DNA of 64,000 bases, taken from Planctomycetaceae bacterium (GTDB taxonomy: Bacteria; Planctomycetota; Planctomycetia; Pirellulales; Pirellulaceae). Where the stretch lies: positions 42,239 through 106,238 of the forward strand of contig JAAYDI010000004.1 of the NCBI GenBank assembly GCA_012729315.1, written 5' to 3'. Below, in pieces: positions 2,408 through 64,000 of the stretch (positions are counted from its first letter, which is position 1; each line of letters begins with the position of its first letter). The notes below the pieces were generated by a model. The model saw only the letters and a list, made by a program, of their open reading frames with translations. It did no database searches and was not told the origin of the DNA. The position numbers were made by a program, and so were the translations under genes.

Positions 2408-2530
2408 GCGGATGCCCGGGTCCAGGGGCTCAGGCGTTATGTCTGAGCCCTTTTTGGTTGTTGGCGTCGAGCGCCGAGTGACGGGCGTCCGTAGGGGCTG
2501 TGCGAACTCAGACGGGTGTGGGCGGGAGCC

Positions 2531-5685: not shown

Positions 5686-5686
5686 C

Positions 5687-6751: not shown

Positions 6752-6807
6752 CCCTGACTCGTTGTCTCGCGGTAATGCAGGGCCCCTTTCGGCCTTGGAC
6801 TGCCGCC

Positions 6808-14430: not shown

Positions 14431-15350
14431 GGCCCACCTCGCAGGACGGTCGGCTGCGATGCATCGGCCGGCTGGTCGGCCGGCGCAGCAGGTGCCCCGG
14501 GGGGCGATCCGGTCATGGCTGCCTGAGCGCGCGCGGCATGCGTCTCGTCGTCGGCGCGGTCGGCAATGAACAGCCGGTAGTACATGGCGCTCAGCAGCAA
14601 ATCGTAGCTGGTGTTGTCCGGCAGGCGGAACTGCGCGAGCAGCGGTACCGCCACGTGCCGGGCCACTTCGCGCCGCCGCAGCGGCGTAAAATACCGGCGA
14701 CGTTCCGCATAGTGCGCCAGTGCCGCCGCCAGACTCCGGCTCACACGCAGATCGGCCGGCAGATAGGAGGCCAGTTGGTAGGTCCGCGGATCCTCGATCC
14801 GGGCGACCCCCGCCAACCAGGGCCGATCCTCTATGACGACCATCGTCCGGGAGGCCAGGTCCCCCAGCCGCTGGAACCGGCGGTTCGCCGCCATCACCGC
14901 CAGACCCAGCACGCAGGTGGGGATCAGCGGCACCGGCGGCAGCCCCAGAATCTCACCGGAAATCATCGGACCGAGATCCACCGTCCGCATGATGTTCCGC
15001 AGGATCGCCTGGTAGGCGTTGACCGGCCGCCCGGTGGCGCTCAAGACACGAATCCCCATCAGCCGTTTGCCCGGCGTCTGGCCGTTCCAGTAGGCTTCGA
15101 ACAGGCCGCCATAGAACCAGCTGAGCACGAACTCGGCGAGGATCCAGATCGCCAGCGAGCCGGCGCCAAGACCGATCGAAAGCACCTGCGCCAGCATCCC
15201 CAGGCCGATGAGCGCCGCGATGCGGATCAACACGTCTATCACGTAGGCCGGCAATCGGCGAAAAGGGCCGGCAACCTGATAGTGGAACGCGATGCCCTCC
15301 GGCGTCACGATGTCGACGGTGGTGTCGATCGGTAGGGCATCTGAGGACAT
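14427..15350 (-). CDS. RDD family membrane protein
   Basis: RDD motif context: GQTPGKRLMGIRV. 4-nt overlap with the next gene. Confidence 0.7.
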   Translation of the reverse strand: MSSDALPIDTTVDIVTPEGIAFHYQVAGPFRRLPAYVIDVLIRIAALIGLGMLAQVLSIGLGAGSLAIWILAEFVLSWFYGGLFEAYWNGQTPGKRLMGIRVLSATGRPVNAYQAILRNIMRTVDLGPMISGEILGLPPVPLIPTCVLGLAVMAANRRFQRLGDLASRTMVVIEDRPWLAGVARIEDPRTYQLASYLPADLRVSRSLAAALAHYAERRRYFTPLRRREVARHVAVPLLAQFRLPDNTSYDLLLSAMYYRLFIADRADDETHAARAQAAMTGSPPGAPAAPADQPADASQPTVLRGGP

Positions 15351-15565
15351 GTCGGCAACGCCACAAGACGAGCGGACTCACCACAATGGAATGCATGCTG
15401 CCAGCAGCCCCGGAGGGCGGGCGGTGGAGGTGCGTTCATTATTGAGATTCGCCCGCCATCCCGCAACCGTTGCCGTGCCGGCGCTGCCGCGAACTCCAAA
15501 ATCGCGCATACTGATGCCTGGTGCTGTCGACATCCCATACGTGCCATGCGGGAGGACTTAACGAG

Positions 15566-24581: not shown

Positions 24582-24757
24582 CCCATTTCTCCGTCGAAGA
24601 TCGAGTATTGCCGGACGCTCCACAGCAGCGTTGTGCCGTGCCGTGCCGCGTCCTCGGGCTGACCGCCGATTCCGGCTGCTGCTGGAGACGCGACCATTGT
24701 AGAGCATGGCCCCGGCTGACGCAGCCGGGGGGCGCGGAGGGGCACGCACCGTGGCGT

Positions 24758-42536: not shown

Positions 42537-43991
42537 TCACGGCGCGGGTGGCAGTGGCGGGAACGTGACAGTGGCGGGGACGGCAAACTCCCCCTCCATG
42601 TCGTAGGGAAGACGGCGTACCACGGTCCCCTCGCGGTTCGCAAAGTAGATACAGGAGACCGACAACTTGTCGGTGTGACCATCGGCCCACAACATGGCGC
42701 AGGGCGAATCCGGCTCCGCGCCGATCACGTTGCGAACGTACGTGTGGTTGCGCGGACTGCCCCGCGTCACGTCCCGCACCTTGGCCCAGCTGATCCCTTC
42801 GTCGTGGCTGATCCAGAGGGCGATTTCGCCCCCGGTCCCCCAGCGCTGCGGCCCCGGCTCGGTGGGACCAGCGATCCGCCAGGTCCCGTCCGACTCGATC
42901 CACAGCGGGCCCATGTCGTAGTTGTGCGTCGAACGCGTCACGAAACGCGTCCGCCAGGTCCCGTCGCGATAGTGCAGCACTTCCCAATTGCGCGGGTCCC
43001 CGTCGGGTCCCGGCCGGTGACTGGATGACGCGACCAGCAGAATGGCCGGGTTTCCGGCGCGGTCGAGCGCGATGCTGTTGATGTACACCAGACGTTGCAC
43101 ATCAGAATAGGCTTTCACCAGCGCCGGGTTCTGCGGGGCGACCAGTGGTGGGGTGATGGTGGTGCCGTCGGCGGTCTGCCATGTCGCGCCGAGGTCACGG
43201 GTCTCGAGATAGTACAAGTCGGTACGGGTGTCCGGCGTGCCGCCCGGATGCCTGTTGAACGCGGTGACAATCCGGTGGCCTGACTGGCAGGAGACCTGGT
43301 AATGCCCGGCGATCCCGGCCAGTTTGCGGTCTTCACCGCGGGTCCCGTCGAATGCCCGCACGTTCCAGTACAGCTCGCGCCCGCCCGTGTACTTGGTGAA
43401 CAGCTCCAGGATGCCATCGCCCTCAACAGCCCACGGCTGCGGGTAACAGATTTCGTCCGCTGACACCTGTATGAAGCGATCGATATCGTAGGGCTCGACG
43501 CTCCGGTAGACGTACCCCGGTCGTGACCGGCCACGCCCCGACACATAGACCCACAAATGCCCCTGGTGATCGATCGTGAGCGAGGCGTTGTCGTGCGGAT
43601 CGTTCACCCCATGCTTGTCATGCAGGATTGTGGGACGCGGCACACGATCGTGCTGGTGGTCGTAGTAGGAGACCATGTTGTAGAGATACTGCTTCCCCTC
43701 CTTCGCGCCACCGTAGCAGAAGAACGTCTTCTGTACCTGGGGAGCGTAGATGGCGATTGGCACGTGGTCCGCCGTATACGTGCCCAGGCCGCCTGAGTAC
43801 TTGTCGCCGTATTCCCAGTACTTCGCCGGATCCTCCCGCAGCTCCGGCGCTGCGGAGTACTGTCCGAGGGTGAACCAGATGCCGCGGTAGCCGCTGTCCT
43901 TGGGCTTGCGTGCAGGGTCATCCTGAGGCCACGTCCCACCTGCCAAAACGCTCCACCAGACACACCACAACATGACTGCGAGATAGCACAT
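42537..43991 (-). CDS. secreted BNR/sialidase-like beta-propeller protein
   Basis: Signal peptide and repeated SxDxGxTW-like motifs (SHDEGISW, DLGATW). Confidence 0.55.
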   Translation of the reverse strand: MCYLAVMLWCVWWSVLAGGTWPQDDPARKPKDSGYRGIWFTLGQYSAAPELREDPAKYWEYGDKYSGGLGTYTADHVPIAIYAPQVQKTFFCYGGAKEGKQYLYNMVSYYDHQHDRVPRPTILHDKHGVNDPHDNASLTIDHQGHLWVYVSGRGRSRPGYVYRSVEPYDIDRFIQVSADEICYPQPWAVEGDGILELFTKYTGGRELYWNVRAFDGTRGEDRKLAGIAGHYQVSCQSGHRIVTAFNRHPGGTPDTRTDLYYLETRDLGATWQTADGTTITPPLVAPQNPALVKAYSDVQRLVYINSIALDRAGNPAILLVASSSHRPGPDGDPRNWEVLHYRDGTWRTRFVTRSTHNYDMGPLWIESDGTWRIAGPTEPGPQRWGTGGEIALWISHDEGISWAKVRDVTRGSPRNHTYVRNVIGAEPDSPCAMLWADGHTDKLSVSCIYFANREGTVVRRLPYDMEGEFAVPATVTFPPLPPAP

Positions 43992-46208: not shown

Positions 46209-49200
46209 CTAGTTCGCTGCCGGCGCGGCCGTCAACTCCCGGCCGCTGGCGTTCGTCACCTCCACCCGGTAACCGTCAGGTGCCTGCACGCTGTACACCA
46301 GTTCGTCGCCGCGCCGTTCCCACTGCAGCTGGACCGGTCCGGCCGGGGTGGGGAGGCTGCCGCGACACCAGTCGAGTCGGACATCCGCCAGACGCACCTC
46401 GACGGTCTGATGTGGAATATCCATTCGGACAACCCCCAGCACATCGCGATAGAGCGTGTGCACGATGTGCGAGGCGAAGCCGTGGTTGCAGCTGGCGTAG
46501 GCGCCGTCGTTCTCCCAGAGTGTCCCCGTCCGCTCGGCCATGTACAGCAGGTAGGCTGTCGACTCGTCCAGAATCTGCTGCTGGTTTCCGTAACGCGACA
46601 GCAACTCGAATCGCAGCATGTTCCCGATGAACGAGTTGGCGACGTGCACGTCCCAGTGCGCCTTCGTCTCCTTGCGGCTGGGGCCGAACTCGTCGCGCAG
46701 CACGGTCCACAGCTGGCCATGTGTCTCGGGAGAGGCGACGTCGAAGAAGAACGCGAAGTACTGGCAGACTTCGCTGCGATTCCTGGTCACCTCCAGTTTC
46801 CCCTCCTTCCGTAGCGCGTTATCGACGAAGAACTGGCCGTCGAACGACTGCTGCCGAATGGCTTCACGGATCGTCTCAGCCTTGGCCTGCAGGTCGGGCA
46901 GGTCGTAGATCCGGCCGGCGGCCGCCAGGGCTGCGGCGTACAGCATGTTGCTGGGATAGTTCACATCCTGCACGAACTCGTTCGCCTTCGACCATTCGAC
47001 AAACACCCAGCTGGGGAGCTTTTCCAGTAGCCCGTCACTGTTCTCGTGGCCGGCGAAAAATGCGAACAGCTGCAGCACCTTCTCGCGCAGAGCGTCTACC
47101 GTGTGGCGATCACCACTGCGCTCCAGGTACTCCTCCAGCTGCACCACGAACCACAGTGACCAGTTGGGGATGAAGATCCCGTCGTTGTGGTCGGCCGGAT
47201 AGCACATGGGCAGCATGCCGGTCGGCAGGTACTCGAAGCGATCCGGCAGCAGGAAGTTCTCGAAGAAATTCTGCTCGACGAGCGTCGTGCCGGTCACGTC
47301 CCGGGCCACCCGCGATGTGAAGTAGCTGTCGCACAACCAGCCGGCTCGTTCGCGCGACGGGCAGTCCATGAACACATCCAGCACATTCTGGCGGAAGGTC
47401 TCGATGCCTGCCTTGTACAGCTCGTTCAGCTGGGGATCGCTGCACTCGAAGACCGCCTGCGTCGGATCCGGGTGCTTGTATTCCCGCAGGTGCACCTGCG
47501 TGACGCTGCAGGCCCCCTCCACGCAGATCAACTTGAGATACCGCAGGGTGTACGGTTCGATCGACTCCACGGTGTACGTCCCCGGATCCAGCTCGTAGCT
47601 CACCAGATTGACGCAGCCGAGACGCTTGAAGTCGACGTCCCCCTCCGTCAGGATCTCGTCGAACGCAAACCAGAGGCGGGACTTCTCCGCGCACTCGAGT
47701 GTACTCCCGATGAAGCCGGTCAGGTTGGTGCCAAAATCCAGGATCCGATAGGTTCCGGCGCTCAGCGCCACCGCCTCCGCCGGTTCGTACGGGCTGGCCA
47801 GCGGCTTGGATTCCTGGGAGCGCAGTGCCTGCATCTCCAGCGACGGGATGGTCTCCAACTGGTTCTCCGGATACCCCTTGAATTGCGGTCCGATGTTGAC
47901 CAGCGAGCGGTCCTTCCAGAGCTGGCCGGGCGGGTCCTGCTTCGTCATCTGTCCGGATGCCACATGCTGCACCGGATCGCGCATTTCGAATTGCGGGAGC
48001 AGCACGCGGCGCGGCAGCAACGGCTTGGCGGATACTTCCGACAGCTCCACCGAGTCCAGGATGGGAGCCGTGCTGTTGCGCCAGGCGTCAGTGCGGGGCG
48101 ACTGCCGATACACCTCGATAAATGCCCGCTGGAAACTGTACCGCTGCACACGCTGTACACGCGCTCCGGGGATCGTGGCGACGAAATCCAGCCCATCAGC
48201 GCCAGTGGCTGCCAATACCTCGTCCCGGTCCGTCACCACCTCGGCCTGCAGGAACGAGGGCTGATCGAGCGTGTTGTACGTGTTGACGTTGTAGCCGGCC
48301 ACTTCGATGGCCAGCACATTCTGGCCGGCACGCAGGTGGCGGGACAGATCCAGCACGTCCATCCGGTAATAGCCGTGCGGCCCGCGCGCCGGCCCGACGG
48401 CGACAAAGGAACCGTTGAGCCAGGCGCGATAGACTGTCGATGCGGCAATCTTCAAAGAGACACGCTGCTCCGGCTGGCTGGAGAAAATCGCCCGAAAACC
48501 GGTTGTCAGGTTCATCTCGGTCTCTCTGCCGGTGGGCCACACTGGCCGGGCCGACTGGAAAGCACACGGCTCCGCATCGGACGCCAAGGTCCGGAACCGT
48601 ACGTTGCGCAGAGCTCCGGTCGTGTTCCACGTGGCAATCCCCAGCGGCAGACACGGCTCCATCTCGCCCGTAACGTTCAGCTTGCGGTGCCCCGGCTCGA
48701 CGCCGCACAAGTACTTGTCATCCAGGTACGCCGACACTTTCTCGGGAGTCACCCGCAGGCGAATGTGATACCACTGGCCCGTCTTGAACTCCCGATACGT
48801 GCCCGTTTCGTTTTCTGCAGCTCGATTGCCGTCAATGCATGACAGGCCGACCACGCCGCCACCCCATCCACCCAGGATCAACGTCAGCGCGCCGTCGCCG
48901 ACAGGAAACGTCAGGCCACAGAAGAAGTCGTTCCCCTCGACGCGCCGACTCTCCAGCTCGAGTTCATAGTCGTAACGGGGGAACGCCCCGGTCCATCGAA
49001 CACCAGTGGCCGGTCGGCCCGACCCGATTACCAGGCACCCGTCCTGGACCTCCACTTGGCCGCCGTCCTCAAAATCGTAGCCGCTGGCAACTTCCCAGCC
49101 GGCCAGTGATTTGCCGTCGAACAGCGGAGTCCAGCCGCCATTCCCGTTCGAGGACGATTGCCGAGTGTCCGCCTCATGGTCCTGGGCCGTCAGGAGGCCG

Positions 49201-49259
49201 GATCCAGCAAATCCAGCAAATGTCAGGGCGATGACCAGTAGCACGCGAATCGATGTCAT
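46209..49259 (-). CDS. secreted DUF1080 (laminin-G-like) + GH78 alpha-L-rhamnosidase fusion
   Basis: Signal peptide, then a DUF1080-like segment (GWTPLFDGKSLAGWE). The remainder is organised like GH78: N-terminal beta-sandwiches, an (alpha/alpha)6 core and a C-terminal beta domain. Confidence 0.75.
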   Translation of the reverse strand: MTSIRVLLVIALTFAGFAGSGLLTAQDHEADTRQSSSNGNGGWTPLFDGKSLAGWEVASGYDFEDGGQVEVQDGCLVIGSGRPATGVRWTGAFPRYDYELELESRRVEGNDFFCGLTFPVGDGALTLILGGWGGGVVGLSCIDGNRAAENETGTYREFKTGQWYHIRLRVTPEKVSAYLDDKYLCGVEPGHRKLNVTGEMEPCLPLGIATWNTTGALRNVRFRTLASDAEPCAFQSARPVWPTGRETEMNLTTGFRAIFSSQPEQRVSLKIAASTVYRAWLNGSFVAVGPARGPHGYYRMDVLDLSRHLRAGQNVLAIEVAGYNVNTYNTLDQPSFLQAEVVTDRDEVLAATGADGLDFVATIPGARVQRVQRYSFQRAFIEVYRQSPRTDAWRNSTAPILDSVELSEVSAKPLLPRRVLLPQFEMRDPVQHVASGQMTKQDPPGQLWKDRSLVNIGPQFKGYPENQLETIPSLEMQALRSQESKPLASPYEPAEAVALSAGTYRILDFGTNLTGFIGSTLECAEKSRLWFAFDEILTEGDVDFKRLGCVNLVSYELDPGTYTVESIEPYTLRYLKLICVEGACSVTQVHLREYKHPDPTQAVFECSDPQLNELYKAGIETFRQNVLDVFMDCPSRERAGWLCDSYFTSRVARDVTGTTLVEQNFFENFLLPDRFEYLPTGMLPMCYPADHNDGIFIPNWSLWFVVQLEEYLERSGDRHTVDALREKVLQLFAFFAGHENSDGLLEKLPSWVFVEWSKANEFVQDVNYPSNMLYAAALAAAGRIYDLPDLQAKAETIREAIRQQSFDGQFFVDNALRKEGKLEVTRNRSEVCQYFAFFFDVASPETHGQLWTVLRDEFGPSRKETKAHWDVHVANSFIGNMLRFELLSRYGNQQQILDESTAYLLYMAERTGTLWENDGAYASCNHGFASHIVHTLYRDVLGVVRMDIPHQTVEVRLADVRLDWCRGSLPTPAGPVQLQWERRGDELVYSVQAPDGYRVEVTNASGRELTAAPAAN

Positions 49260-49509
49260 AACGCTGCGCAACCTATGCAGGAGATCGAGGTGTCGAAAGG
49301 CCGAACGCCGGGGGCGCGCGGAATACGCACTCGACGATAAACCACCGAGCAGCCTGCGGTCAACCAGCGAGAAAAATGTGCAGCCACGTGAGGGGAACCG
49401 GCGGTCCACGGCGATCAGAGGGCAGACCGTGCCTGCAGCAAGGACGGCAGGTCCTGCCAGCTGACCTGTCACCCCTGTTTACAGGAGTTCACTTCACAGG
49501 AGTTCACCT

Positions 49510-49815
49510 ATGTCCCCCGACAGCCACCACCCGCACTTCGCGCTGGGACGAATCCTGGCGACGCCAGGAGCACTCCAGGTGATCGAACACAGTGGCCAGA
49601 CCCCGGCCGACTTTCTGAGCCGGCATGCCCGGGGCGACTGGGGATGCATATCCGCCAGCGACCAACAGCTGAATGATCGGGCGATCGAATCTGGAGCGCG
49701 GATCCTGTCCGCTTACGAGACCCTCAACGGCGTTCGCCTCTGGATCATCACGGACGCTCAGGATGCGGCGGGCCATCGTGAAAGCACGACAATCCTGCTG
49801 CCACAGGAATACTAG
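49510..49815 (+). CDS. hypothetical small protein (101 aa)
   Basis: AGGAG 7 nt upstream, within a duplicated acaggagttcac motif. Balanced composition. C-terminal segment RLWIITDA...TTILLPQEY. No confident family assignment. Confidence 0.45.
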   Translation: MSPDSHHPHFALGRILATPGALQVIEHSGQTPADFLSRHARGDWGCISASDQQLNDRAIESGARILSAYETLNGVRLWIITDAQDAAGHRESTTILLPQEY

Positions 49816-50515
49816 CGGGCCACACGCGCCGATCGGCCGCCGCTGCCCCCCCGCCCACTCCCGGCCGCACGCCGGGCCGGATTGTCAGCAGCCCTCTTGT
49901 GGGGGTTGTTTCCGAAAGCCAAAATGGCGGGTACAGCTGTGCGGCTTCGGGCAGTGAAGCGCGCTAAACCGCCCATTCATCCCAAGCAGAATAAACGCGT
50001 GCTGGCTCCTGATTCGCGCACAATCGTTTCGCGCCATTGTTCGACACGTCGACAAGGCTTAACCTATACTAGTCAAAGCACTGTTCGTAACCTGAATATG
50101 CGTAACGTGTTTTGTGATTTTGTACAAACCGGGTGGTGGGCGTTGCAAGAACGCATGCGGTGCAGCGCTGGCCTTAGATTTGTCAAAATCGGCAAAATGC
50201 GCATTCAGGCACGTCACTTGCTGCCTAAAAGGCGGGTTGTTATAGATAGGGGTTTCCCGTCGGTCGGGAAATCTCGGCAACTTTCCCCCCCAAAGACTGC
50301 CGTTGGCCGGGTGAGGTTGGCGGTCAGTTCCAGCCTGTGTTTTCGTGCCGTGAGGGCACCAGGAATGTGCCAACAAGGAGGTGTGCCGTGGGACGGGTGA
50401 CCGAACCGTCAGCGGGACATCAACAGGGCCTCGAGTGGTGCTGTTCCTGGACAACTGTTGATTCTGTTGTTGTATGTTTCGAACTTCGCTCGAGCTTCTG
50501 GAGGTTGAAGTCACC

Positions 50516-51187
50516 ATGAGACGACGAGTTGTGTTGATGGCTACGATTGTATCCATCGTTGGGTTAGCTTTTCTATTGTTCGGCCTCGGCCCGGCGACGC
50601 AGGCATCGAGTGATGTAGCGTACGGTTGGGCGGCCACCACGTCTGCGGCGGCCACCACGTCGGCGCCCGCTACGACCTGTGCTCCGGCGACGACCTGTGC
50701 GCCGAAGACGACCTGTGCGCCGAAGAAGAAGTGCCGTGCGCCTCGCGTCCGCGATTGCGCTCCGGCGACGACCTGTGCTCCGAAGACCACGTGTGCTCCG
50801 AAGGCCAAGCGGGCTGCGAAGACCACGTGCGCTCCGAAGACCACGTGCGCTCCGAAGGTTGTCTGCGAGCCGGCTACTACCTGTGCTCCGAAGACGACCT
50901 GCGCTCCCAAGAAGGATCGCAATGGTCTGTTTGGCCGTCGCGCCAAGACGACTTGTGCGCCGGCCACCACCTGTGCTCCGAAGACCACCTGCGCTCCGGC
51001 TACCACCTGCGCCCCGGCTACGACCTGTGCGCCCGCGGCTGCGGACGATGTGGCTCCGGCCGACGCGGCTCCGGCTGAGGAAGCTCCGGCTGCCGAGGCG
51101 GCCGCCGAGGAAGCTCCGCCTGCTGAGCCGGCCCCTGAGGCTGCTGCTGAGCCGGCCGCTCCTGCCGAGCCCGCTCCCGCCGAGTAG
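50516..51187 (+). CDS. secreted Cys/Thr hexapeptide-repeat protein ((A/K)TTCAP)n with acidic Ala/Pro/Glu tail
   Basis: GGAGG 12 nt upstream. Sec signal MRRRVVLMATIVSIVGLAFLLFGLGPATQA. About 14 perfect TTCAP(A/K) units plus about 5 degenerate ones, 17 Cys in total. The tail is APAEEAPAAE-rich. A strong terminator follows. Confidence 0.75.
   Translation: MRRRVVLMATIVSIVGLAFLLFGLGPATQASSDVAYGWAATTSAAATTSAPATTCAPATTCAPKTTCAPKKKCRAPRVRDCAPATTCAPKTTCAPKAKRAAKTTCAPKTTCAPKVVCEPATTCAPKTTCAPKKDRNGLFGRRAKTTCAPATTCAPKTTCAPATTCAPATTCAPAAADDVAPADAAPAEEAPAAEAAAEEAPPAEPAPEAAAEPAAPAEPAPAE
50636..51037 (+). repeat. 18-bp coding tandem repeat array (acgacctgtgcNccNNNN)
   Basis: About 19 consecutive units visible in the DNA. 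The antisense strand reads AGAQVV repeats. Confidence 0.85.
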
Positions 51188-51285
51188 TACCTGCCGAGAG
51201 CTGGCTTCAAGTCCACTGCATGCGAAGCGTCAGGGTTGACGCGGCGAGATGTGGTGCAGTAGAAGATACTGATTAGTTGCCTAGA

Positions 51286-51326
51286 CAGCCCAGGTCGCAC
51301 GCAAGTTGGACCTGGGCTGTTTTTTG
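51286..51326 (+). terminator. Rho-independent terminator
   Basis: Stem cagcccaggtc / gacctgggctg (11 bp, GC-rich) with a 12-nt loop, followed by tttttt. Confidence 0.8.
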
Positions 51327-51357
51327 TCTCCAGCAGCGTGCAGGTGGGATCGCGGCA

Positions 51358-54120
51358 TTGTCGACCTCCGTCATTGACTCGACCGACTCCCTGAACTCCA
51401 GGCATCTGGCAGCCGGCCGCCTCGGCGTCGCCTGGAGTATCGGGTTGGGGCTGTGCGCAGCATGGCTGGCTGCGGGTTCGCTGGGCACCCTGACCACGTC
51501 GCTGCAGGCGACGCTGTCCTGGCTGCTGCTGGGAGCCGCCGTCCTCTGTGCGCAACCCCGGCTGAAACCTGGCGGCTGGTGCGTTCTGGCTGGCGCCATT
51601 CTGGTGCTCGCCGCGGTACCAGCCATCGTGGCGCCGGTGCGGCAGGGCCTGACGCTGACCGTCGCGGCGGTGATGGGGGGGATGGCGGCCGGACTGGTGG
51701 ATCCAGCGCGACGTCTGATGTTGGCAGGCGCGGTGGCCGTATTGACGCTGGCGGTCTATCGTCTGGCGCAGCAGTCGGTACCTGCCATCTGGATGCTCAG
51801 CGATGCGCTGGGCGGTCTGATGGGATACGTCGCTGCTGGCGCGCTTCGCAGGCCACTGGCGGTCGGCGCGAGCTTTGGCGGGCTCGACCTGGTGATCGTC
51901 ATGGGCGTGTTCTGTGCTCTCTGGGTGCGGGCTTTGCGTGGCCCGCGTCTGGCATCGGCGCTGTTCGCGGTGGGGGCGATTGGGGCCGTGCACTTCCTCT
52001 ATCTGACGATCCTGGCCTGCACGCCCGAGATCCTCAGCCGTCTGCCGCCGGTCGAGCCTCCGGCGATGGGCAACCCGTACGTTCCGCCCCCGTTCAGCTG
52101 GCTCCTGGTCGTGCGCCAGCTCTTGCCCTGGAATCTGCCGGCCCTGGCGGCGCTTCTGTACCTGGTGCTGGTCGTCGTGCTGATCCGGACAGGCGTTTAT
52201 CGGGTGGACAGCCCCGAGCTGGCGATGTCGGCGGGCCGGCGTGACGCGGGGTGGCGCGCGGTGGTGATCTTGTTGGGCCTGGCCCTCATCCTGCCCTGGT
52301 GCGGGCTGTTCCGCACTGGCCAGAGCCTGGCGGGGAAGCGGATCGTGGCCAACATGCACGGGCAGCTCGATTGGGAAACACCCCAGCACGATGAGTACGG
52401 GCGTGAGCAGGCCGGCATGTACGGCATGCTGCCCTCCTTCGTCGCCAGTCTGGGGGCGGAGTTGCAGCTCTCATCGGACCTGAGCAGCGCTGATCTCGCC
52501 TCCGCGGACGCCGTGCTCCTGCTGAATCCCGACACCGAACTGTCGTTAGAGCAGCAGGATCGAGTCTGGCAGTACGTGCGCGACGGCGGTTCGATGCTGG
52601 TCGTGACCGAAGGCTTCCTGCCGGAGAATGGACTGGAGCGGCGTGTCAACGAACTGCTGCAACCGACGTCAATATCGGTCCATCGCGACGCGGCGATGTC
52701 CGAGACCACAGACTGGTGGGGATCGATCCGCGCCTTGGAGCATCCGGCCATGACGTCGGTCTATCCGGCTGCGCGGCGGGTGTTCTCCGATCTGGGAGCG
52801 TCGGTCGAGGTGCGCTGGCCGGCGCGGCCCTTGGCCCTGGGGATCTGGGGATGGAGCGCGCCGGAACAAGGGGCGACCTTGATGGGTGCTGCCAGCCTGC
52901 TGCCCGGTGCCCGGCTGGGGGACCTGGTGCTGGCTGCTGAACAGCGCGTGGGGGCGGGCCGTGTCCTGGTGTTGGGTGACCGCTACAGCCTGACGAATGA
53001 GGGGTTGGTCAACGGCCACACGTTTGTCGCGGACCTGTTGTCCTATCTGGCTGCACCCACCTCCGGTCCCCAGGCGATGTGGCGCCAATTCGGCACGGTG
53101 CTATGCCTGGCCGGCCTGTTGGGGCTGGTCGCGTGGCACATCAGTGGGCCCAGGCTGATGGCCACTTGTGTGTTGTTGGCCAGTTCGCTGGCGCTGGCCC
53201 AGCTGGTGATCGCCAGCAGTTCGTCGGTCATGCCCGACGGCACGCAGCGACTTGCCGGTGCAGTTCACACGCCACCGAACCGTGTGGCGTACATCGACGC
53301 CACGCATCTGGAACCGTACAGCGTCCGGGACTGGTCGTTCGATGCGCTCAACGGCCTGGTGCTGAATCTCGCACGCAACGGCTACCTGCCGCTGGCCCTC
53401 CACGAGTTCGACGCCGCGCGTTTGGAGCGGGCCGGTCTGTTCGTGTCGATCGGGCCCGCGCGGGCGTTTTCGAGCGCTGAACGGGCGTGTCTCAGGCAGT
53501 TTGTCCAGCGCGGTGGCATCTTGATCAGCATGGTGGGAGCGGAGGAGGCGGCGGCCAGCGCCGCACTGCTGGCCGATTTCGGACTCCGCGTGCCACCCTC
53601 GCCCGTGCCCACCTGCGGCACGGACTTCGAACCGGAGCCGTTTGGACGCACACGCGCCAACTACCTGGAGGTGTCACAGGAAGCGGATAGCTACCTGGTG
53701 GCGGCTCGGCTGCATGCCGCCTGGCCGGTCGAACCGCAAGTCCAAGAGGCAGAGGTACTGGCCTACGGGCACAATCAACTGCCCGTCGTCCAGAGCGAAG
53801 CGGAATTGCCCGTGATCGTTACCTGCCGGTTCGGGCAGGGACAGGTCGTACTGATCGGCGACACCTGTTTTGCGATGAACAAGAACCTCGAATACATCGG
53901 TGGTGAACCGTTTCATGGTGCGTACGAGAACGCGCACTTCTGGCGCTGGCTGCTGACGCGGTTACAGGGTCAGCCGGAGTGGGTGCCGCCGCGACCGCCA
54001 GCACGCGTGCAGGAACCGGACGACGAGGCGGCTGAGGTTGCGCCGGAGGAGGACATGCCGGAGGAGGAAATGTTCCAGGAGGAAGCGCCGGAGGAGGAAG
54101 CGCCGGAGGAGGAAGCATAG
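51358..54120 (+). CDS. large membrane protein: N-terminal polytopic domain + two periplasmic GldG/ThuA/DUF4350-like domains separated by a TM helix, acidic PEEEA tail
   Basis: About 8 N-terminal TM helices. Two repeats of the motif class xxVLLLNPDT...YVRDGGSMLVVTEG / GAGRVLVLGDRYSLTNE and GLFVSIGPA...FVQRGGILISMVG / GQVVLIGDTCFAMNKN. The start is uncertain; TTG 51358 is the first candidate after the terminator. Confidence 0.55.
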   Translation: MSTSVIDSTDSLNSRHLAAGRLGVAWSIGLGLCAAWLAAGSLGTLTTSLQATLSWLLLGAAVLCAQPRLKPGGWCVLAGAILVLAAVPAIVAPVRQGLTLTVAAVMGGMAAGLVDPARRLMLAGAVAVLTLAVYRLAQQSVPAIWMLSDALGGLMGYVAAGALRRPLAVGASFGGLDLVIVMGVFCALWVRALRGPRLASALFAVGAIGAVHFLYLTILACTPEILSRLPPVEPPAMGNPYVPPPFSWLLVVRQLLPWNLPALAALLYLVLVVVLIRTGVYRVDSPELAMSAGRRDAGWRAVVILLGLALILPWCGLFRTGQSLAGKRIVANMHGQLDWETPQHDEYGREQAGMYGMLPSFVASLGAELQLSSDLSSADLASADAVLLLNPDTELSLEQQDRVWQYVRDGGSMLVVTEGFLPENGLERRVNELLQPTSISVHRDAAMSETTDWWGSIRALEHPAMTSVYPAARRVFSDLGASVEVRWPARPLALGIWGWSAPEQGATLMGAASLLPGARLGDLVLAAEQRVGAGRVLVLGDRYSLTNEGLVNGHTFVADLLSYLAAPTSGPQAMWRQFGTVLCLAGLLGLVAWHISGPRLMATCVLLASSLALAQLVIASSSSVMPDGTQRLAGAVHTPPNRVAYIDATHLEPYSVRDWSFDALNGLVLNLARNGYLPLALHEFDAARLERAGLFVSIGPARAFSSAERACLRQFVQRGGILISMVGAEEAAASAALLADFGLRVPPSPVPTCGTDFEPEPFGRTRANYLEVSQEADSYLVAARLHAAWPVEPQVQEAEVLAYGHNQLPVVQSEAELPVIVTCRFGQGQVVLIGDTCFAMNKNLEYIGGEPFHGAYENAHFWRWLLTRLQGQPEWVPPRPPARVQEPDDEAAEVAPEEDMPEEEMFQEEAPEEEAPEEEA

Positions 54121-56675
54121 TGCGGATCTGGTTCGCGACAGCGTTTCTGGCCAGCGCGTGGTTATTTGGCCTCGGCTATTTCACGCCGGTCCACCTGGTG
54201 GCCTGGATCGGTGCGGTGGTGGTCGCGGTCCTGCTGCTGGGCGATGTGCCCGTTCGCCTTCCACGGCGGGGTGAACGCGGGTTGGCACTGCTGCTGGTGC
54301 TGCCGGCGCTCTGGCTGGCGCCGTTTCCGTATTGCAGCATGCCCATTCTGCTGAGTTGCGGGCTGCTGGCATCACTGCTGCCCGTGCGGGGCACGAGCAT
54401 GCGGTTTGTGACGCGCGGGTGTTTGCTGGCCAGCCTGATTCTCCTGCCCCAGGCGCTGCTGCTGCTGGGCTACCAGAATCTGACCGCGCGCTCACATGCG
54501 TTGCCCCACGTGCTGGCAGCGCCCGTAGCCGGCATCCTGCGACTGCTCGGCGCGGACGTGGCGCTGGATGGCACATCGCTGGTGCTGCAGGACACGGGGG
54601 TCACCGATCGGATCGCGGCGAGCTGGGAGCTGTTGTGGGACCCGGCCACGGCCAGCGTCGTGGCGGGTGGGTTGGTAGTGCTGGCCTACCTGGCCAGCTT
54701 GCGCCGGCATGCGCCGGGGCAGTGCCGAGCGTTTCTGCGCGGCGCAGGGGTGCTGTTGCTGGTGACGCTCGCCTGGGCGCCGCTGCGGCTGGCCCTGCTG
54801 GTCGCGCTGGTGCTGCAGCAGCAGTTGCGGGCCGATGTGGCGGCGTTCCCCAATGTGGGGCAGATTCTGGTCAGTTCCTGGGTGCACGCGGTCCTGGTGT
54901 GCGCGTGGGCCGTGGTGCTCGGCCGCCTCGTGCCGCTGCCTGGCCCGCGTTTGTCTGGCGCCGCCCCCGCCCGGGCGCAGGCCAGTCGGTGTCCGGCGCG
55001 CCTCCGGCGGCGTGGCGCGGTCCTGGCCGCGTATGCCATTGCCGTGGCGATGCTCGTCTTTCTCTACTGTTGGACGCCGGTCGGTGAGCGGAAGGCGGGA
55101 CGCGTGATGGTAGTCGAGCGGCATTCCGCCTGGGAGCCGACGACGGAGCCGTACGGTACGGAAGTGTATGGCGAGGCGGGATCCTACAATTATGCGGCCA
55201 TCTACGCCTATTGCAGCCAGTATTACGACATGTCGCGCCTCGCGGCCGACGACCCGCTGGATGATGGAACGCTGGAGTTGTGTGACGTTCTGATCATCAA
55301 GACCCCCACGGCGCGCTACGCCCCTGAGGAAGTGGAGGCGGTGGTCAGGTTCGTCGACCGCGGCGGTTCGCTGCTACTGATCGGCGATCATACCAACGTG
55401 TTCAACATGAACACTTACCTGAACGACATTGCCCGCCACTTCGGGTTCACGTTCCGCAATGACCTGTTGTTCCGCGTCGGTGATCCGTACCGCCAGCAGT
55501 ACCGGCCGCCGGCGCTGGCGCATCCGCTGCTGCAGCACGTGCCGCCCATGTCGTTTGCCGTGTCGTGTTCGATCGATCCGGGATCGTCCCGCGGCTCGAT
55601 GGTGATCCGCAACGTAGGGTTGTTCAACCTGCCTCCTGCATATCAGGAATCGAACTATCATCCGCAGGCCGAGTATCGGCCATACATGGAGTACGGCGCC
55701 TGGTGTCAGCTCTGGAGCACCGTCTTCGGGCGTGGCAAGGTACTCGCGTTCGCCGACTCCACGCTGTTCTCGAACTTCTGCGTCTACCAGCCGGGCAAGA
55801 CCGAGCTGTTCATGAGCATGGTCGAATGGTTGAATCACCACCCGGGCCGCGGCGTCCCGCGGAATCGGGCGCTGTGGATCCTCACCGCGCTCGTCGCGTG
55901 CGTGCTCGGCTGTCTGGGGCTGCGTGAGAAGGCCGGTGCCTGGATTCTGGTGTTGTCGGTCACCTGGTGTGCCTGGAGCGTAGCGGTCGGCGGCACGCTT
56001 CACCTGCACGGGCGTGCCCTGCCGCTGCCCGCGAAGAAGCAGTCGCTGCAACACGTGGTGATCGACCGGTCCCTGTCGACCGTACCGCTGTTCACGGGTG
56101 CGTTCGCCGACGACCCGGAAGGAGGTGGTTACGGGCTGCTCGAACAGTGGATTCCCCGCGTCGGGAATTACACTTCGCGGCGCGGCGGCATGGAGGTACT
56201 CTCAGGCGATGCGCTGGTCGTGATCTGCCCGACGCTGCTGCCCGGTCCTCAGTTTCGCGACGCGCTGCTGGACTGGGTCCAGTCGGGTGGCCGTCTGCTG
56301 GTGTTCGACACGCCCGACGTGGAGGAGTCGACGGCCAACAGTCTTTTGCAGCTATTCGGGCTGACATCGATCCACAACGCGGCGGATCAGGAGGACGAGC
56401 CTCTGCGTCTGGCGGAACCGTCGCTGGAGACGCCGCTGCAGGCCGCGTGCGAGATCCAGGGGGGCGAACCGTTGGCGTTCTGGGGTGAGGTGCCGATTGC
56501 CGCGCGGACCCGCTTTGGAGACGGCTGGGTGACTGCCGTCGGGTTCGGCTCGTTGTTCAATGATGCGAGCATGGGTTATCACTGGCTCGAGCCGCCGGGC
56601 GAGCCGCAGCTGCAGCGGTACGAGATCCTCTACGCGCTGCTCCGCGCCGCCCTGCAGGAGCCTCCGGAGCGGTGA
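54120..56675 (+). CDS. paralog of preceding gene: polytopic N-domain + two GldG/ThuA/DUF4350-like periplasmic domains
   Basis: GTG start overlaps the upstream TAG (TAGTG). Same architecture as the preceding gene: CDVLIIKTP...FVDRGGSLLLIGDHTN / GKVLAFADSTLFSNF, a TM helix, then GDALVVICP...WVQSGGRLLVFDTPD / GWVTAVGFGSLFND. Confidence 0.6.
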   Translation: MRIWFATAFLASAWLFGLGYFTPVHLVAWIGAVVVAVLLLGDVPVRLPRRGERGLALLLVLPALWLAPFPYCSMPILLSCGLLASLLPVRGTSMRFVTRGCLLASLILLPQALLLLGYQNLTARSHALPHVLAAPVAGILRLLGADVALDGTSLVLQDTGVTDRIAASWELLWDPATASVVAGGLVVLAYLASLRRHAPGQCRAFLRGAGVLLLVTLAWAPLRLALLVALVLQQQLRADVAAFPNVGQILVSSWVHAVLVCAWAVVLGRLVPLPGPRLSGAAPARAQASRCPARLRRRGAVLAAYAIAVAMLVFLYCWTPVGERKAGRVMVVERHSAWEPTTEPYGTEVYGEAGSYNYAAIYAYCSQYYDMSRLAADDPLDDGTLELCDVLIIKTPTARYAPEEVEAVVRFVDRGGSLLLIGDHTNVFNMNTYLNDIARHFGFTFRNDLLFRVGDPYRQQYRPPALAHPLLQHVPPMSFAVSCSIDPGSSRGSMVIRNVGLFNLPPAYQESNYHPQAEYRPYMEYGAWCQLWSTVFGRGKVLAFADSTLFSNFCVYQPGKTELFMSMVEWLNHHPGRGVPRNRALWILTALVACVLGCLGLREKAGAWILVLSVTWCAWSVAVGGTLHLHGRALPLPAKKQSLQHVVIDRSLSTVPLFTGAFADDPEGGGYGLLEQWIPRVGNYTSRRGGMEVLSGDALVVICPTLLPGPQFRDALLDWVQSGGRLLVFDTPDVEESTANSLLQLFGLTSIHNAADQEDEPLRLAEPSLETPLQAACEIQGGEPLAFWGEVPIAARTRFGDGWVTAVGFGSLFNDASMGYHWLEPPGEPQLQRYEILYALLRAALQEPPER

Positions 56676-62298: not shown

Positions 62299-64000
62299 TT
62301 ACTGGGGGACGAACTCGTACACGCGCACATCGGTCGGATCGAGGGTCACGGTCAGCGCCGCGGCACCCTGGTCGAACGTGCCCACCGCGACCGATGCCTG
62401 TTCTTCAATCTGCCGGATGAGACCCTGTTCCGGCAGCGGCCAGGCAGGGCTGGCGAGGGCTATTTTGACGGGCATGGATTCGTTGGTGAGATTGGCCAAT
62501 GCGATGGCGACCGCACCGTCCGCGGCCTGCCACGCGGCGGCCAGGACGGCGGGTACCTTCTTGGTATACTCCTGCACCGCGTCGTGCTGCCCCGCGTAGA
62601 TGCTCAGTCGCGACATGGGAATCGTGACTTCACCAGTGCCGGTCTCGGGTGGCCGCAGGAACACGCCGTCCCGCAGGTACTTGGCGGCGTTGCGGCGCAG
62701 TCTGGCAATCCGGATCAGGAAATCCAGTTCCGCGCGGCGCGACTCCAATTGCTCCGGCAGGAAGTTGGCCAGCGTCGGCTGCTGGCCCCAGACAAAGGCC
62801 CTTCCCTGCTCCAGGCGGAACTGCTGCGCGAACTTCTCGTCCAGCAGTTGCAGTGGCTTGTCCGGAGCATGCTCGGCCGGCCACAGGTCGTCGTAGGGGG
62901 GGCGCGTCAATGACGAGTAGTTGCCGTAGAGCATGGCGCAGTCGTGATAGACGGCTTGGAACATGGGAATCGGATCCCACAGGCCGGGCGCTGCATACCG
63001 CTCCATGCTCACTTGCAGGCTGAGCATCAGGTCCAGATGTGGCAGCCACGCCTCGCCACACCCCTCGCCCGCGAGTGCCACCTGCCGGGTGCTTTCGCAG
63101 CGGTGCCGGATATCAGCCGCCAGGGACTGGAAACCCTGCATCCACCAGGCACCGCCACCCAACGGGTGGCCGTGTGTCGCGTCGTAGCAGGCAAGGCTCT
63201 GGCAGGCCTGATCCATGTAGATGCCGTCGACACCGAGATCGCACACCGCTTCGGTTGCCAGGCCCGCGTACTTGCCGCGCCAGAACTCGGTTCCCATGCA
63301 CATCGATGCGCAGGGTACTTTCATGAACGTGTTGTAGACTTCGGGGGTGACCTGGCCATTCGGGTTCTTGACGGCGAATCGTTCGGCGCCCTCCTCCGTC
63401 CAGCTGCGCGCTGTCATCCCCCACAGCCGCTGGTTCATGTAGACGATACTGTGCAGGCCGCGCTCGTGCGCCGTGCGTACGGCCTCGCGAAATGGGTCGG
63501 TGCCTTCACGCGGTGGCAGGTACTCCGGGAACCCGGCGTCGTAGGGGCAACCGTGCCACCAGTGCCAGAACACCGAGACGGGGACGCCTGCGGCGTCCTG
63601 CAGCGTCGCCGCGGGGGGGAGCACGCCGGGCGAACGCCCCCGGTTCCAGACCCACAGGCCTGTATCCAGCACCCAGGCCGGCGTCAGCCCGCGCCGCAGG
63701 CGGCTCTGGTGCACCCACGACTGCTCCCGCGCCCAGGTCCGGTAGTGTTCCGCCGCCGTGTACCAGTCCCCCTGAAACAGCCGCACGCAGACCGCATAGG
63801 GGGGCGCAAACGAATCGAAACCCCCGGCGTCGGGCGGCACATGCTCCACCTCCACACCCAGACCACCGGCACCATCTCCGAACACGGCGAAGTGCTTGCG
63901 CAGCGCCGCCGTGTCGTCCGTGGCCATCATCAACCCGGGACCCTGCTGGCGATAGAGCGCGAGGCACTGCAACGACAGCAGACCCGGATACGACCACTCG
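62299..64000 (-). CDS. glycoside-hydrolase-like TIM-barrel protein (DUF-type), 5' partial; frame stays open to window end
   Basis: GVDGIYMDQ-type motif and an aromatic-rich barrel. The ORF track's start at 63972 is a TTG, but the frame continues without a stop to nt 64000. Confidence 0.5.
   Translation of the reverse strand, partial: EWSYPGLLSLQCLALYRQQGPGLMMATDDTAALRKHFAVFGDGAGGLGVEVEHVPPDAGGFDSFAPPYAVCVRLFQGDWYTAAEHYRTWAREQSWVHQSRLRRGLTPAWVLDTGLWVWNRGRSPGVLPPAATLQDAAGVPVSVFWHWWHGCPYDAGFPEYLPPREGTDPFREAVRTAHERGLHSIVYMNQRLWGMTARSWTEEGAERFAVKNPNGQVTPEVYNTFMKVPCASMCMGTEFWRGKYAGLATEAVCDLGVDGIYMDQACQSLACYDATHGHPLGGGAWWMQGFQSLAADIRHRCESTRQVALAGEGCGEAWLPHLDLMLSLQVSMERYAAPGLWDPIPMFQAVYHDCAMLYGNYSSLTRPPYDDLWPAEHAPDKPLQLLDEKFAQQFRLEQGRAFVWGQQPTLANFLPEQLESRRAELDFLIRIARLRRNAAKYLRDGVFLRPPETGTGEVTIPMSRLSIYAGQHDAVQEYTKKVPAVLAAAWQAADGAVAIALANLTNESMPVKIALASPAWPLPEQGLIRQIEEQASVAVGTFDQGAAALTVTLDPTDVRVYEFVPQ

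Follow-up and report, generated by a model that had tools for sequence, protein, structure and literature searches.

What is the protein that a Planctomycetaceae bacterium makes from tandem repeats of a Cys-containing hexapeptide, and what might such a protein be for? The question is raised by one gene in a 64,000-nucleotide stretch of genome assembly GCA_012729315.1 (contig JAAYDI010000004.1, positions 42,239 to 106,238 of the forward strand). We call this whole stretch the window and give positions in its coordinates unless another locus is named. The gene (50516..51187, + strand), which we call TCAP, had been picked out in a preliminary description as encoding a Sec-exported Cys/Thr repeat protein of no recognised class. 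Our analysis indicates that its product is almost certainly a real secreted repeat protein, that it belongs to a new Planctomycetota family, and that it is linked to a pair of membrane proteins, DUF4350A and DUF4350B. As to its function, our tentative reading, to which we assign a probability of about 45%, is that the TCAP protein is a cationic structural protein of the envelope or matrix that would be covalently cross-linked by disulfides and, in sister clades, also by isopeptide bonds.

The repeat gene is read from the + strand

A simple repeat in high-GC DNA might be no gene at all, with the antisense or another frame being the expressed one or the repeat being an assembly artefact, and the preliminary description had itself raised both doubts. 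Several features of the locus invite them. GC content by codon position of the TCAP frame is atypical (0.62/0.74/0.68), and the +2 frame of the window gene (50614-51078) has a third-position GC profile more gene-like than that of the true frame. A 776-amino-acid open reading frame (ORF) lies antisense to the gene (50059..52389, − strand), a public gene caller placed an antisense ORF on the TCAP gene of locus L049 (2556-2954, −), and the ortholog in locus L001 (L001/P0002, 10001-10372) has a frameshifted gene call.

These doubts are contradicted by comparison with relatives. When we compared the gene codon by codon with seven orthologs, we counted 271, 241 and 764 differences at codon positions 1, 2 and 3, respectively, of the TCAP frame, and this excess of third-position substitutions fits only the + strand TCAP frame. 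The signal peptide, a peptide motif, the interrupters of the repeat array and the stop codon are kept in ~50 loci despite divergence of the DNA. The antisense ORF has no Pfam match, its register contains 1–7 stops in many orthologs, and it overlaps the homology-supported coding region of DUF4350A; we consider it spurious and outside the system. The gene together with 500 nucleotides (nt) of flanking sequence is 100% identical in six independent short-read assemblies, including the NCBI metagenome-assembled genome (MAG) GCA_036807945.1, which rules out an assembly artefact, and the exact 223-amino-acid product is called on the + strand in 11 contigs. The atypical GC profile arises because Ala, Thr and Pro codons carry C at position 2, and this profile probably also explains the antisense call in L049 and the frameshifted call of L001/P0002; the frameshift in L001 itself is attributable to assembly indels, because the neighbouring genes are fragmented as well. 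An upstream in-frame ATG at 50474 is not conserved in orthologs, which places the start at 50516. With the codon-position pattern and the conserved peptide features both supporting a + strand gene for an exported Cys/Thr repeat protein, the chance that this is not a real gene is, in our estimate, negligible.

A cationic repeat chain with an acidic tail

The ORF translates to 223 amino acids, which fall into distinct segments. At the N terminus, the sequence MRRRVVLMATIVSIVGLAFLLFGLGPATQA is followed by SS after the predicted cleavage site. This signal peptide, as we read it (residues 1-30; 50516..50605, +), has an RRR n-region, a 20-residue hydrophobic core and the end G-P-A-T-Q-A before S, features from which Sec export and signal-peptide cleavage are predicted. 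A short aromatic motif, DVAYGW, separates the N-terminal segment from the repeat array (residues 40-173; 50633..51034, +), in which three blocks of hexapeptides are divided by two basic interrupters, KKKCRAPRVRDCAP and KKDRNGLFGRRAK. The unit of the array is x-T-T-(C/S)-A-P; exact TTCAP occurs 14 times, and the non-standard units comprise two TTSA(A/P) and the degenerate KKCRAP, DCAP and VVCEP. The remainder is a 50-residue Ala/Pro/Glu/Asp tail (residues 174-223, with the stop codon 51035..51187, +) that has a net charge of −13, compared with +19 for the repeat region.

The window protein contains 17 Cys, 34 Thr, 30 Pro and 63 Ala residues. Successive Cys residues are spaced six apart in 13 of 16 intervals, the other three being 8, 12 and 18, and the mature protein has 15 Lys but no Gln, Met or His. 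The first estimate of ~19 units, 17 Cys and a 50-residue tail stands. The best explanation of these features is a mature protein of ~190 amino acids that is strongly cationic and intrinsically disordered and ends in an acidic tail.

The array had also been described as a near-perfect DNA repeat, which it is not. Tandem Repeats Finder reports an 18-bp period with matches of 72–94%, nearly all synonymous third positions differ between units, and individual odd units, VVCEP among them, hold the same place in different species. A degenerate DNA pattern spanning two units nonetheless occurs nine times in the 64-kb window, against 0.00 occurrences expected.

AlphaFold2, run on a shallow alignment of seven sequences that limits the disorder call, was confident only for the N-terminal helix (residues 2-22, predicted local distance difference test (pLDDT) > 90) and modelled the repeats and most of the tail as coil with pLDDT < 50 and without strands. 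Because of this predicted coil, the presence of one Pro in each unit and the variation in unit length between five and six residues described below, the repeat region is probably an extended, intrinsically disordered chain rather than a disulfide-braced solenoid.

An undescribed family in Planctomycetota

We defined the family by an N-terminal signal peptide, at least eight x-T-(T)-(C/S)-A-P units, basic Arg/Cys interrupters and occurrence in a Planctomycetota genome. The window protein has all of these features, as do ~50 non-redundant relatives. Scanning one genome from each of 185,579 species with the degenerate two-unit DNA pattern returned 46 loci, of which 28 were family members, all of them in Planctomycetota. 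Every one of the 24 loci with at least two pattern matches lay in a Planctomycetota MAG (Pirellulaceae, Pirellulales, 'Planctomycetaceae' or Candidatus Anammoximicrobium); four loci with a single match were also TCAP members, and the remaining single matches were chance occurrences in scattered GC-rich taxa. A scan of metagenomes added ~35 TCAP loci. Judged by its sequences, TCAP is an undescribed family restricted to Planctomycetota and found mostly in Pirellulaceae.

Protein databases contain little of this family. The TCAP protein had zero Pfam or NCBIfam matches even at E <= 10. An exhaustive HMMER search of 1.84 billion representative proteins yielded 16 matches, ~4 of them true relatives and most of the others unrelated low-complexity proteins of the ETTAEP or CGPxG type, which bears out the initial impression of an unrecognised repeat class. 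Word-indexed homology searches, whether with the single sequence or with a 24-sequence profile, found only 4–6 true relatives, and the exact protein was absent from a collection of 15 billion protein sequences. This scarcity is probably due to the atypical codon-position GC, and in part to gene calling on the wrong strand. TCAP genes are a systematic annotation blind spot, in which Ala/Thr/Pro-rich repeats of high-GC genomes are called antisense or in the wrong frame. In the literature that we searched, we found no relevant text on TTCAP or on cystine and proline in planctomycete envelopes; as far as that literature and the databases go, neither the family nor its ties to GIFT-domain proteins and to a GP42-type transglutaminase have been described.

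Within the family there are at least three types of signal peptide, that of subfamily B being a classical one ending in AFA before GHGYA, and the C-terminal tail is variously acidic and Ala/Pro/Glu-rich (as in the window), composed of (V/M)QK pentapeptides, composed of Lys-rich APKA repeats, or missing. In 651 units from 51 non-redundant members, the x position is occupied by A (30%), M (23%), K (21%) or V (17%), and the core is T (96%), T (96%), C (83%) or S (16%), and A (80%), with P fixed by the way in which units were searched. Met at x (MTTCAP) is frequent in subfamily B, and Ser units mostly belong to a separate VTTSAP type. Pentapeptide variants (K-T-C-A-P) occur in P0018, P0019, L019, L070 and L093. 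Because five- and six-residue units coexist, conservation applies to a short linear motif and not to a set geometric period.

Between species of subfamily A, both interrupters stay in place, as do odd units of the type (K/E)VVCEP, while the number of units in a block changes. The window protein has five units after GLFGRRAK, compared with eight in L016, whose neighbouring proteins are ~95% identical to those of the window, and repeat number therefore evolves between species. The suggestion that the locus is likely to vary in length was weakened nonetheless: comparing the six population assemblies revealed no variation in repeat length, their DNA being identical. Contigs with an identical DUF4350B all break just upstream of that gene and could not be used for comparing repeat numbers.

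Our searches also recovered two unrelated proteins, P0012 and P0013, built from x-C-G-P-x-G hexapeptides (collagen-like, with one Cys per six residues) and ending in a C-terminal globular domain. They are probably phage tail-fibre-like proteins.

TCAP genes are linked to a pair of GIFT-domain membrane proteins

Two genes for large membrane proteins come after the TCAP gene. DUF4350A (51358..54120, +) encodes a polytopic protein of 925 amino acids that matches the Pfam families DUF4350, IFT52_GIFT and ABC_transp_aux; it starts at a TTG codon (51358) 171 nt past the TCAP stop, as called in independent assemblies. DUF4350B (54120..56675, +), whose start overlaps the DUF4350A stop, encodes an 851-amino-acid paralog of the same architecture. 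Each protein consists of an N-terminal domain with multiple transmembrane segments (as judged from hydropathy), a DUF4350/GIFT/ABC_transp_aux domain, a two-helix transmembrane hairpin and a second DUF4350 domain. In the orientation that we infer, two GldG/IFT52/OST48-like GIFT domains of each partner are predicted to face the periplasm. A relaxed Pfam search with the N-terminal transmembrane domains of the two proteins found no match. A 920-amino-acid protein in the 90%-identity cluster of DUF4350A, NLX53619.1, is named 'hypothetical protein' at NCBI.

In 22 of the 30 informative loci (those with at least 1.5 kb of downstream sequence), the next genes downstream of TCAP are the DUF4350A/B pair. 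The linkage spans all signal-peptide subfamilies and extends to DUF4350A proteins of only ~40% identity, with the other flanks unrelated. Persistence of the linkage at this level of divergence, when the other flanks have nothing in common, is good evidence of a functional link.

The pair cannot be assigned to a known GldG system. Against the GldG equivalog model (NCBIfam TIGR03521), DUF4350A scored 19.4 bits compared with a cutoff of 389.85, and DUF4350B had no match. No ABC transporter genes adjoin DUF4350A/B in the window. The usual context of DUF4350 is a MoxR-DUF58-DUF4350 cluster, and the window contains a separate cluster of this kind (7988-11849, −; its MoxR AAA ATPase matching AAA_3), with an RDD-family protein nearby (14427-15377).

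Some TCAP paralogs found away from a DUF4350 pair have a divergently oriented neighbour in common (L026 4085-5665, L043 5032-6594, L095 2454-4019 and L114 726-2291), a protein of ~520 amino acids with an RR-containing, Cys-rich N terminus (M..LD.LSGCA.C.IDRR.FL..GCAACAG) and no Pfam match. Elsewhere, small multi-haem cytochrome c genes encoding four CxxCH motifs stand just upstream of DUF4350A in L048 (2558-3052) and L117 (1665-2117). This cytochrome-bearing sister clade of the pair has a longer DUF4350B (~1100 amino acids) and, downstream, a large FAD-dependent oxidoreductase, and its cytochrome gene shares translational coupling with an aldo-keto reductase gene, not with DUF4350A. The cytochrome neighbourhood may represent a redox context for the DUF4350 pair.

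Sister clades add a transglutaminase-family enzyme and Gln/Lys repeats

In L041 (= L063) and L005, extra genes are inserted between the TCAP gene and DUF4350A. One, present in one or two copies, encodes a secreted 141-amino-acid protein of AAQKD/QKGKEAC repeats with an acidic Ala/Pro tail. The other, also present in one or two copies, encodes a secreted homolog of TGase_elicitor (PF16683); the L041 and L005 enzymes score 76–77 bits against a cutoff of 25 and match PDB 3tw5 at E = 1e-13. In another sub-clade (L072, L075, L092 and L100), a 47%-identical homolog (73.5 bits) occupies the same place in the opposite orientation. A Cys of these planctomycete homologs aligns with the catalytic position of the family. 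Homologs lie at 5396-6913 (−) in L041, at 3937-5658 (−) in L072 and, as a duplicate, at 2005-3099 and 4379-5479 (both −) in L005.

Gln and Lys are the two substrates of transglutaminases. At the transglutaminase loci, every TCAP protein whose C terminus was available has a tail containing Gln and Lys. Across the family, the Gln residues of mature TCAP proteins are concentrated in C-terminal tails, with VQK repeats in most members of subfamily B, and the chains of L102, L108 and L089 each intersperse QK pentapeptides among their TCAP units.

The inserted Gln/Lys-repeat protein (AAQKD five times, QKGKEAC three times, then the acidic tail) represents another undescribed family, again of small secreted proteins made of repeats, encoded beside TCAP and transglutaminase-family genes; its genes are at 6989-7414 (−) in L041, ~5776-6039 and ~3623-3724 in L005, 3409-3702 in L002 and ~1078-1212 in L042. 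Acidic C termini recur among the proteins of these clusters. The L041 transglutaminase homolog has a very acidic C-terminal tail and DUF4350A ends in an acidic PEEE tail (PEEDMPEEEMFQEEAPEEEAPEEEA, 54040-54120), so that Ala/Pro/Glu-rich acidic ends are common to the TCAP protein, DUF4350A, the QK-repeat protein and the transglutaminase homolog. They could be a shared targeting or interaction feature.

A conserved leader and a strong terminator frame the gene

The preliminary description had credited the gene with its own GGAGG Shine-Dalgarno sequence and an intrinsic terminator, and we confirmed both. GGAGG, at 50500-50504, precedes the ATG by 11 nt, and orthologs have kept it. It is part of a 5′ leader (50330..50515, +) whose DNA is conserved in 11 subfamily-A loci although synonymous sites of the coding sequence have diverged. 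The leader holds the hairpin GGCACCAGGAATGTGCC at 50355-50371, a covarying middle hairpin, the sequence CAACAGGG...TTCCTGG, and TCGCTCGAGCTTCTGGAGG, which contains the Shine-Dalgarno sequence; compensatory changes are seen at six base pairs, and the middle hairpin shows such changes. These motifs are unique within the window. The single-sequence fold of the leader is unexceptional (z = −1.0), and an Rfam scan of 49800-51500 by E-value gave no match for it. CCAGGA(A) at 50359-50365 can pair with either TTCCTGG at 50444-50450 or the Shine-Dalgarno region TTCTGGAGG at 50496-50504. From its sequence, the leader may serve in translational control.

Between the TCAP gene and DUF4350A lies a conserved 3′ element, AGAAGA-ACTGATyTGTTGCC, together with the terminator (51262..51325, +). 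The terminator has a 14-bp stem (51283-51322), and the 3′ arm of this stem passes into a T-tract that ends at 51325; the hairpin (51283-51325) folds with −34.3 kcal/mol and z = −4.1. Its stem, CAGCCCAGG/CCTGGGCTG, and the 3′ element are conserved in eight orthologs while the loop varies, a degree of conservation that is unusual for a terminator. The only Rfam signal in the scanned region was a sub-threshold match to Acido-Lenti-1 (17 bits) on the terminator. The terminator escaped a simple promoter/terminator scanner, its loop being longer than 8 nt, and the same scanner found no convincing promoter near the TCAP gene. Possession of its own leader and of a strong terminator upstream of the membrane partners resembles, by analogy, an arrangement in which the gene of a major subunit precedes assembly genes of lower abundance.

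What the TCAP protein might do

If the TCAP protein is a cross-linked structural protein, a role and chemistry that we infer, the parts of the system could work together as follows. The exported, extended polycation would be received, positioned or assembled by a DUF4350A/B platform through its periplasmic GIFT domains. TCAP molecules would then associate through their cationic repeat regions and anionic tails, and the assembly would be locked by intermolecular disulfides from the 17 regularly spaced Cys residues to give an insoluble envelope or matrix layer. In the sister clades, VQK tails, Gln/Lys-repeat proteins and the secreted transglutaminase-family enzyme could add isopeptide cross-links. 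The nearly invariant Thr-Thr pair may bear O-glycans. Of the functions initially put forward for the gene, a disulfide lattice and an O-glycosylated envelope protein remain the best, and both were strengthened by the conserved GIFT-domain pair and by the sister-clade transglutaminase-family enzyme and Gln/Lys repeats; metal binding, the third, lost ground because the protein has no CxC, CxxC or His motifs and Ser stands in for Cys in 16% of units.

Several observations weigh against the structural, cross-linked reading. Because Cys gives way to Ser in 16% of units while each Thr of the Thr-Thr pair is 96% conserved, Cys is not the most constrained residue of the unit. Many of the source samples look anoxic by name (bioreactor, sediment, biogas), and extracellular disulfides may be unstable in such places. 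Disorder of the chain was called by AlphaFold2 from a shallow alignment of seven sequences. The 64-kb window encodes no transglutaminase and the mature window protein has no Gln, so the isopeptide part of the proposal draws only on sister clades; even there, the homologs read H-C-N at the C-H position of GP42, which makes their transglutaminase activity putative only. As for the membrane partners, the DUF4350 pair is missing from six to eight TCAP loci, and the sister clade of the pair that follows a multi-haem cytochrome c instead of TCAP means that the pair is not TCAP-specific.

The alternative that we take most seriously, although we consider it unlikely, is a mucin-like O-glycoprotein. 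Thr-Thr (and Ser/Cys) in an Ala/Pro context would be heavily glycosylated, making the protein a hydrated coat or lubricant of the surface; the glycan or glycoprotein would be bound or processed by the GIFT domains of DUF4350A/B, and cross-linking would be secondary or absent. The high conservation of both Thr residues, above the 83% of Cys, agrees with this idea, and the interchange of Cys and Ser points to a small nucleophilic side chain. The chain is Pro-rich and predicted to be disordered, Thr in Ala/Pro-rich segments is the typical context of actinobacterial O-mannosylation, and the partner domains have an OST48-like fold; GIFT domains have reportedly been proposed, by Beatson and Ponting in 2004, to bind sugars. 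However, OST48 is non-catalytic, no glycosyltransferase is conserved in the cluster, and the regular Cys residues, the basic Cys/Arg interrupters and the association with transglutaminase and QK repeats would be left unexplained. Glycosylation is in any case compatible with a cross-linked envelope protein; the two readings are not exclusive. A thiol-based metal or redox buffer, in which a reduced poly-Cys chain would bind soft metals (Cu, Zn, Cd, Hg, Ni, Fe-S) or carry electrons or sulfur together with the DUF4350 membrane pair, seems to us less probable again. It would suit the density of Cys (17 in ~135 residues), the frequent Met at x in subfamily B (MTTCAP, 23% of units), the apparently largely anoxic habitats, and the sister clade in which a multi-haem cytochrome c occupies the slot before the DUF4350 pair and an FAD oxidoreductase follows. 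But chelating motifs (CxC, CxxC or His) are missing, each Cys being isolated, one per 5–6 residues, and followed by Ala-Pro; Cys-to-Ser units are common and patterned (VTTSAP); the mature window protein lacks Met and His; and no metal-sensing regulator or efflux gene is nearby. The coupling of the cytochrome to the aldo-keto reductase, and not to DUF4350A, also means that its positional analogy with TCAP may be coincidental.

Two further ideas strike us as very improbable. The spacing of six residues between Cys residues, with flanking Thr, resembles the antifreeze protein of Tenebrio molitor (TmAFP), a protein of Thr-rich 12-residue coils with the repeat TCTxSxxCxxAx, and might thus suggest a disulfide-braced beta-solenoid acting as an ice-, mineral- or surface-binding rod. 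AlphaFold2 predicted no beta structure, though (pLDDT < 50, with the seven-sequence alignment), every unit contains Pro, units are five or six residues long, varying inside single members as well as from one member to another, an internal ladder of disulfides would be broken by the Cys-to-Ser units, and the motif is TTC, not TCT. Equally hard to credit is a precursor like those of ribosomally synthesized and post-translationally modified peptides (RiPPs), whose Thr and Cys residues would be dehydrated and cyclised (lanthionine-type) or modified in some other way, and which would be cut into small peptides at the basic interrupters. Thr does stand beside Cys in every unit, and the dibasic interrupters (GRR, KK) could be cleavage sites, but the protein has a Sec-type signal peptide instead of a RiPP leader, its conserved partners are GIFT-domain membrane proteins, and neither the window nor the conserved neighbourhood yielded a lanthipeptide synthetase, a radical-SAM enzyme, a cyclodehydratase or a peptidase-ABC exporter. 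Weighing all of these, we retain the cross-linked structural protein as our preferred, if provisional, reading.

Surroundings of the locus

Directly upstream of TCAP in subfamily A is a 101-amino-acid ORF (window 49510-49815, +; ...GDWG...WIITD...TTILLPQEY) that has no Pfam or NCBIfam match and is 59–70% identical between loci; since the rhamnosidase gene further upstream is also syntenic, its conservation may reflect plain shared synteny. The locus is surrounded by carbohydrate-active genes (46209-49472, 42537-43991 and 62299-63972, all −), whose products are a rhamnosidase that also carries a 3-keto-disaccharide hydrolase domain, a BNR_4 protein and one of the DUF6259/GHL6 type. Such genes are typical of polysaccharide degradation in Pirellulaceae. 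A 698-amino-acid protein with a C-terminal Redoxin/AhpC-TSA/thioredoxin-like domain (22860-24956, −) is a possible extracytoplasmic thiol-disulfide oxidoreductase, to judge from its domain; it is encoded ~25 kb from TCAP and is not syntenic with it.

Implications for planctomycete envelopes

Planctomycete envelopes have long been reported to be unusually protein-rich, and to our knowledge only YTV proteins have been proposed as components. TCAP provides a second, unrelated and previously unannotated family of Cys-rich secreted repeat proteins in these bacteria. Its conserved genetic partner, the two GldG/IFT52/OST48-like membrane proteins, offers a functional handle on the DUF4350/GIFT family, and the co-encoded transglutaminase-family enzyme and Gln/Lys repeats make the cohesion of a protein wall, by disulfide and isopeptide bonds, testable.

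At its most speculative, the cluster might be a bacterial 'cornification' module, in which a Cys/Pro/Thr repeat scaffold and Gln/Lys-repeat co-substrates would be served by a secreted transglutaminase, with two GIFT-domain membrane proteins to assemble or anchor the product. We think it doubtful that the full module exists in this form. If it does, it would build a covalently cross-linked, detergent-resistant protein layer, would supply a molecular basis for the protein-dominated, cystine- and proline-rich wall of Pirellula-type planctomycetes recognised decades ago, and would give widespread DUF4350/GldG-like membrane proteins their first function.

Comparison with known protein families

That TCAP is not a YTV, collagen-like or PEP-CTERM protein, as had been stated from the first, was upheld by our searches at E <= 10 in Pfam and NCBIfam. 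A YTV repeat protein (PF07639) was rejected because hmmscan returned no Pfam-A family at that threshold and the sole Tyr lies outside the repeats. With six Gly in 223 residues and a six-residue period of Gly-free units, the protein is not collagen-like; it ends in ...AEPAPAE with no hydrophobic segment and no NCBIfam match, unlike a PEP-CTERM/exosortase substrate; and it has no Cys spacing of 1–3, unlike proteins of the metallothionein type.

The idea of a cystine- and proline-containing planctomycete envelope is said to go back to primary papers by Konig in 1984 and Liesack in 1986. Wall preparations of planctomycetes are protein-dominated, which fits the structural reading of TCAP, and contain Cys-rich YTV proteins, which were recovered from cell walls prepared from Rhodopirellula, Gemmata and Tuwongella (PMC12673574, PMC8567305). 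Like the YTV proteins of Planctomycetia, TCAP proteins are restricted to planctomycetes, predicted to be secreted, made of Cys-rich tandem repeats and candidates for a protein envelope. They differ in having a 5–6-residue T-T-C-A-P unit that is predicted to be disordered, in the DUF4350A/B context, and in the lack of any sequence relation.

The nearest known relatives of the DUF4350A/B domains are the flavodoxin-fold domains of the GldG, IFT52-GIFT, OST48 (WBP1) and ThuA-like kind (Pfam PF09822, PF23355 and PF14258), and what DUF4350A/B share with GldG is limited to a domain fold. Unlike GldG, IFT52 and OST48, the two proteins form a paralogous pair in which two such domains are fused behind a domain of ~9 transmembrane segments that has no detectable relative, and they are adjoined by no ABC transporter, MoxR or vWA partner. 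The enzymes of L041/L063, L005, L072, L075, L092 and L100 match the GP42/Vibrio transglutaminase family (PF16683, PDB 3tw5), whose Phytophthora member GP42 has an unusual C-H catalytic motif (PMC10318531). Compared with GP42, the TCAP-cluster enzymes carry long acidic C-terminal tails; no such enzyme is encoded in the window.

The closest parallels in design are distant in ancestry. Precursors of the cornified envelope of vertebrates are small, intrinsically disordered proteins that have a Cys/Pro-repeat core with Q/K-rich ends, which serve as transglutaminase substrates, and are locked into an insoluble layer by isopeptide and disulfide bonds (PMC11816140). TCAP resembles SPRR, loricrin, LCE and high-sulfur KRTAP proteins in its Cys/Pro core, in the QK tails of many members and in the transglutaminase-family gene of two sub-clades. 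The likeness is a convergent analogy and not homology: the cornified-envelope proteins and KRTAPs are eukaryotic and intracellular, the TCAP cross-links are putative, and the window protein, unlike SPRR and loricrin, has a Gln-free acidic tail and no adjacent transglutaminase. TmAFP likewise has Cys every six residues and neighbouring Thr, but the motif of TCAP, its Pro content, variable unit length and Cys-to-Ser units, and its predicted disorder speak against a solenoid. Among bacteria, the OmcA/OmcB complex of Chlamydia and the spore coat and exosporium of Bacillus (CotY/ExsY, Tgl) owe their rigidity to cross-linked Cys-rich proteins, the spore layers adding isopeptide bonds to disulfides, and Chlamydiae and Planctomycetota both belong to the PVC (Planctomycetes-Verrucomicrobia-Chlamydiae) superphylum. 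OmcA/OmcB and CotY/ExsY have no sequence similarity to TCAP, are folded or lipidated, contain no simple hexapeptide arrays and use other assembly machinery. The Cys-rich, secreted, tandem-repeat structural protein is thus a known kind of protein, whereas the TCAP family and its links with GIFT-domain membrane proteins and with a GP42-type enzyme are, as far as the literature and sequence collections that we searched show, new.

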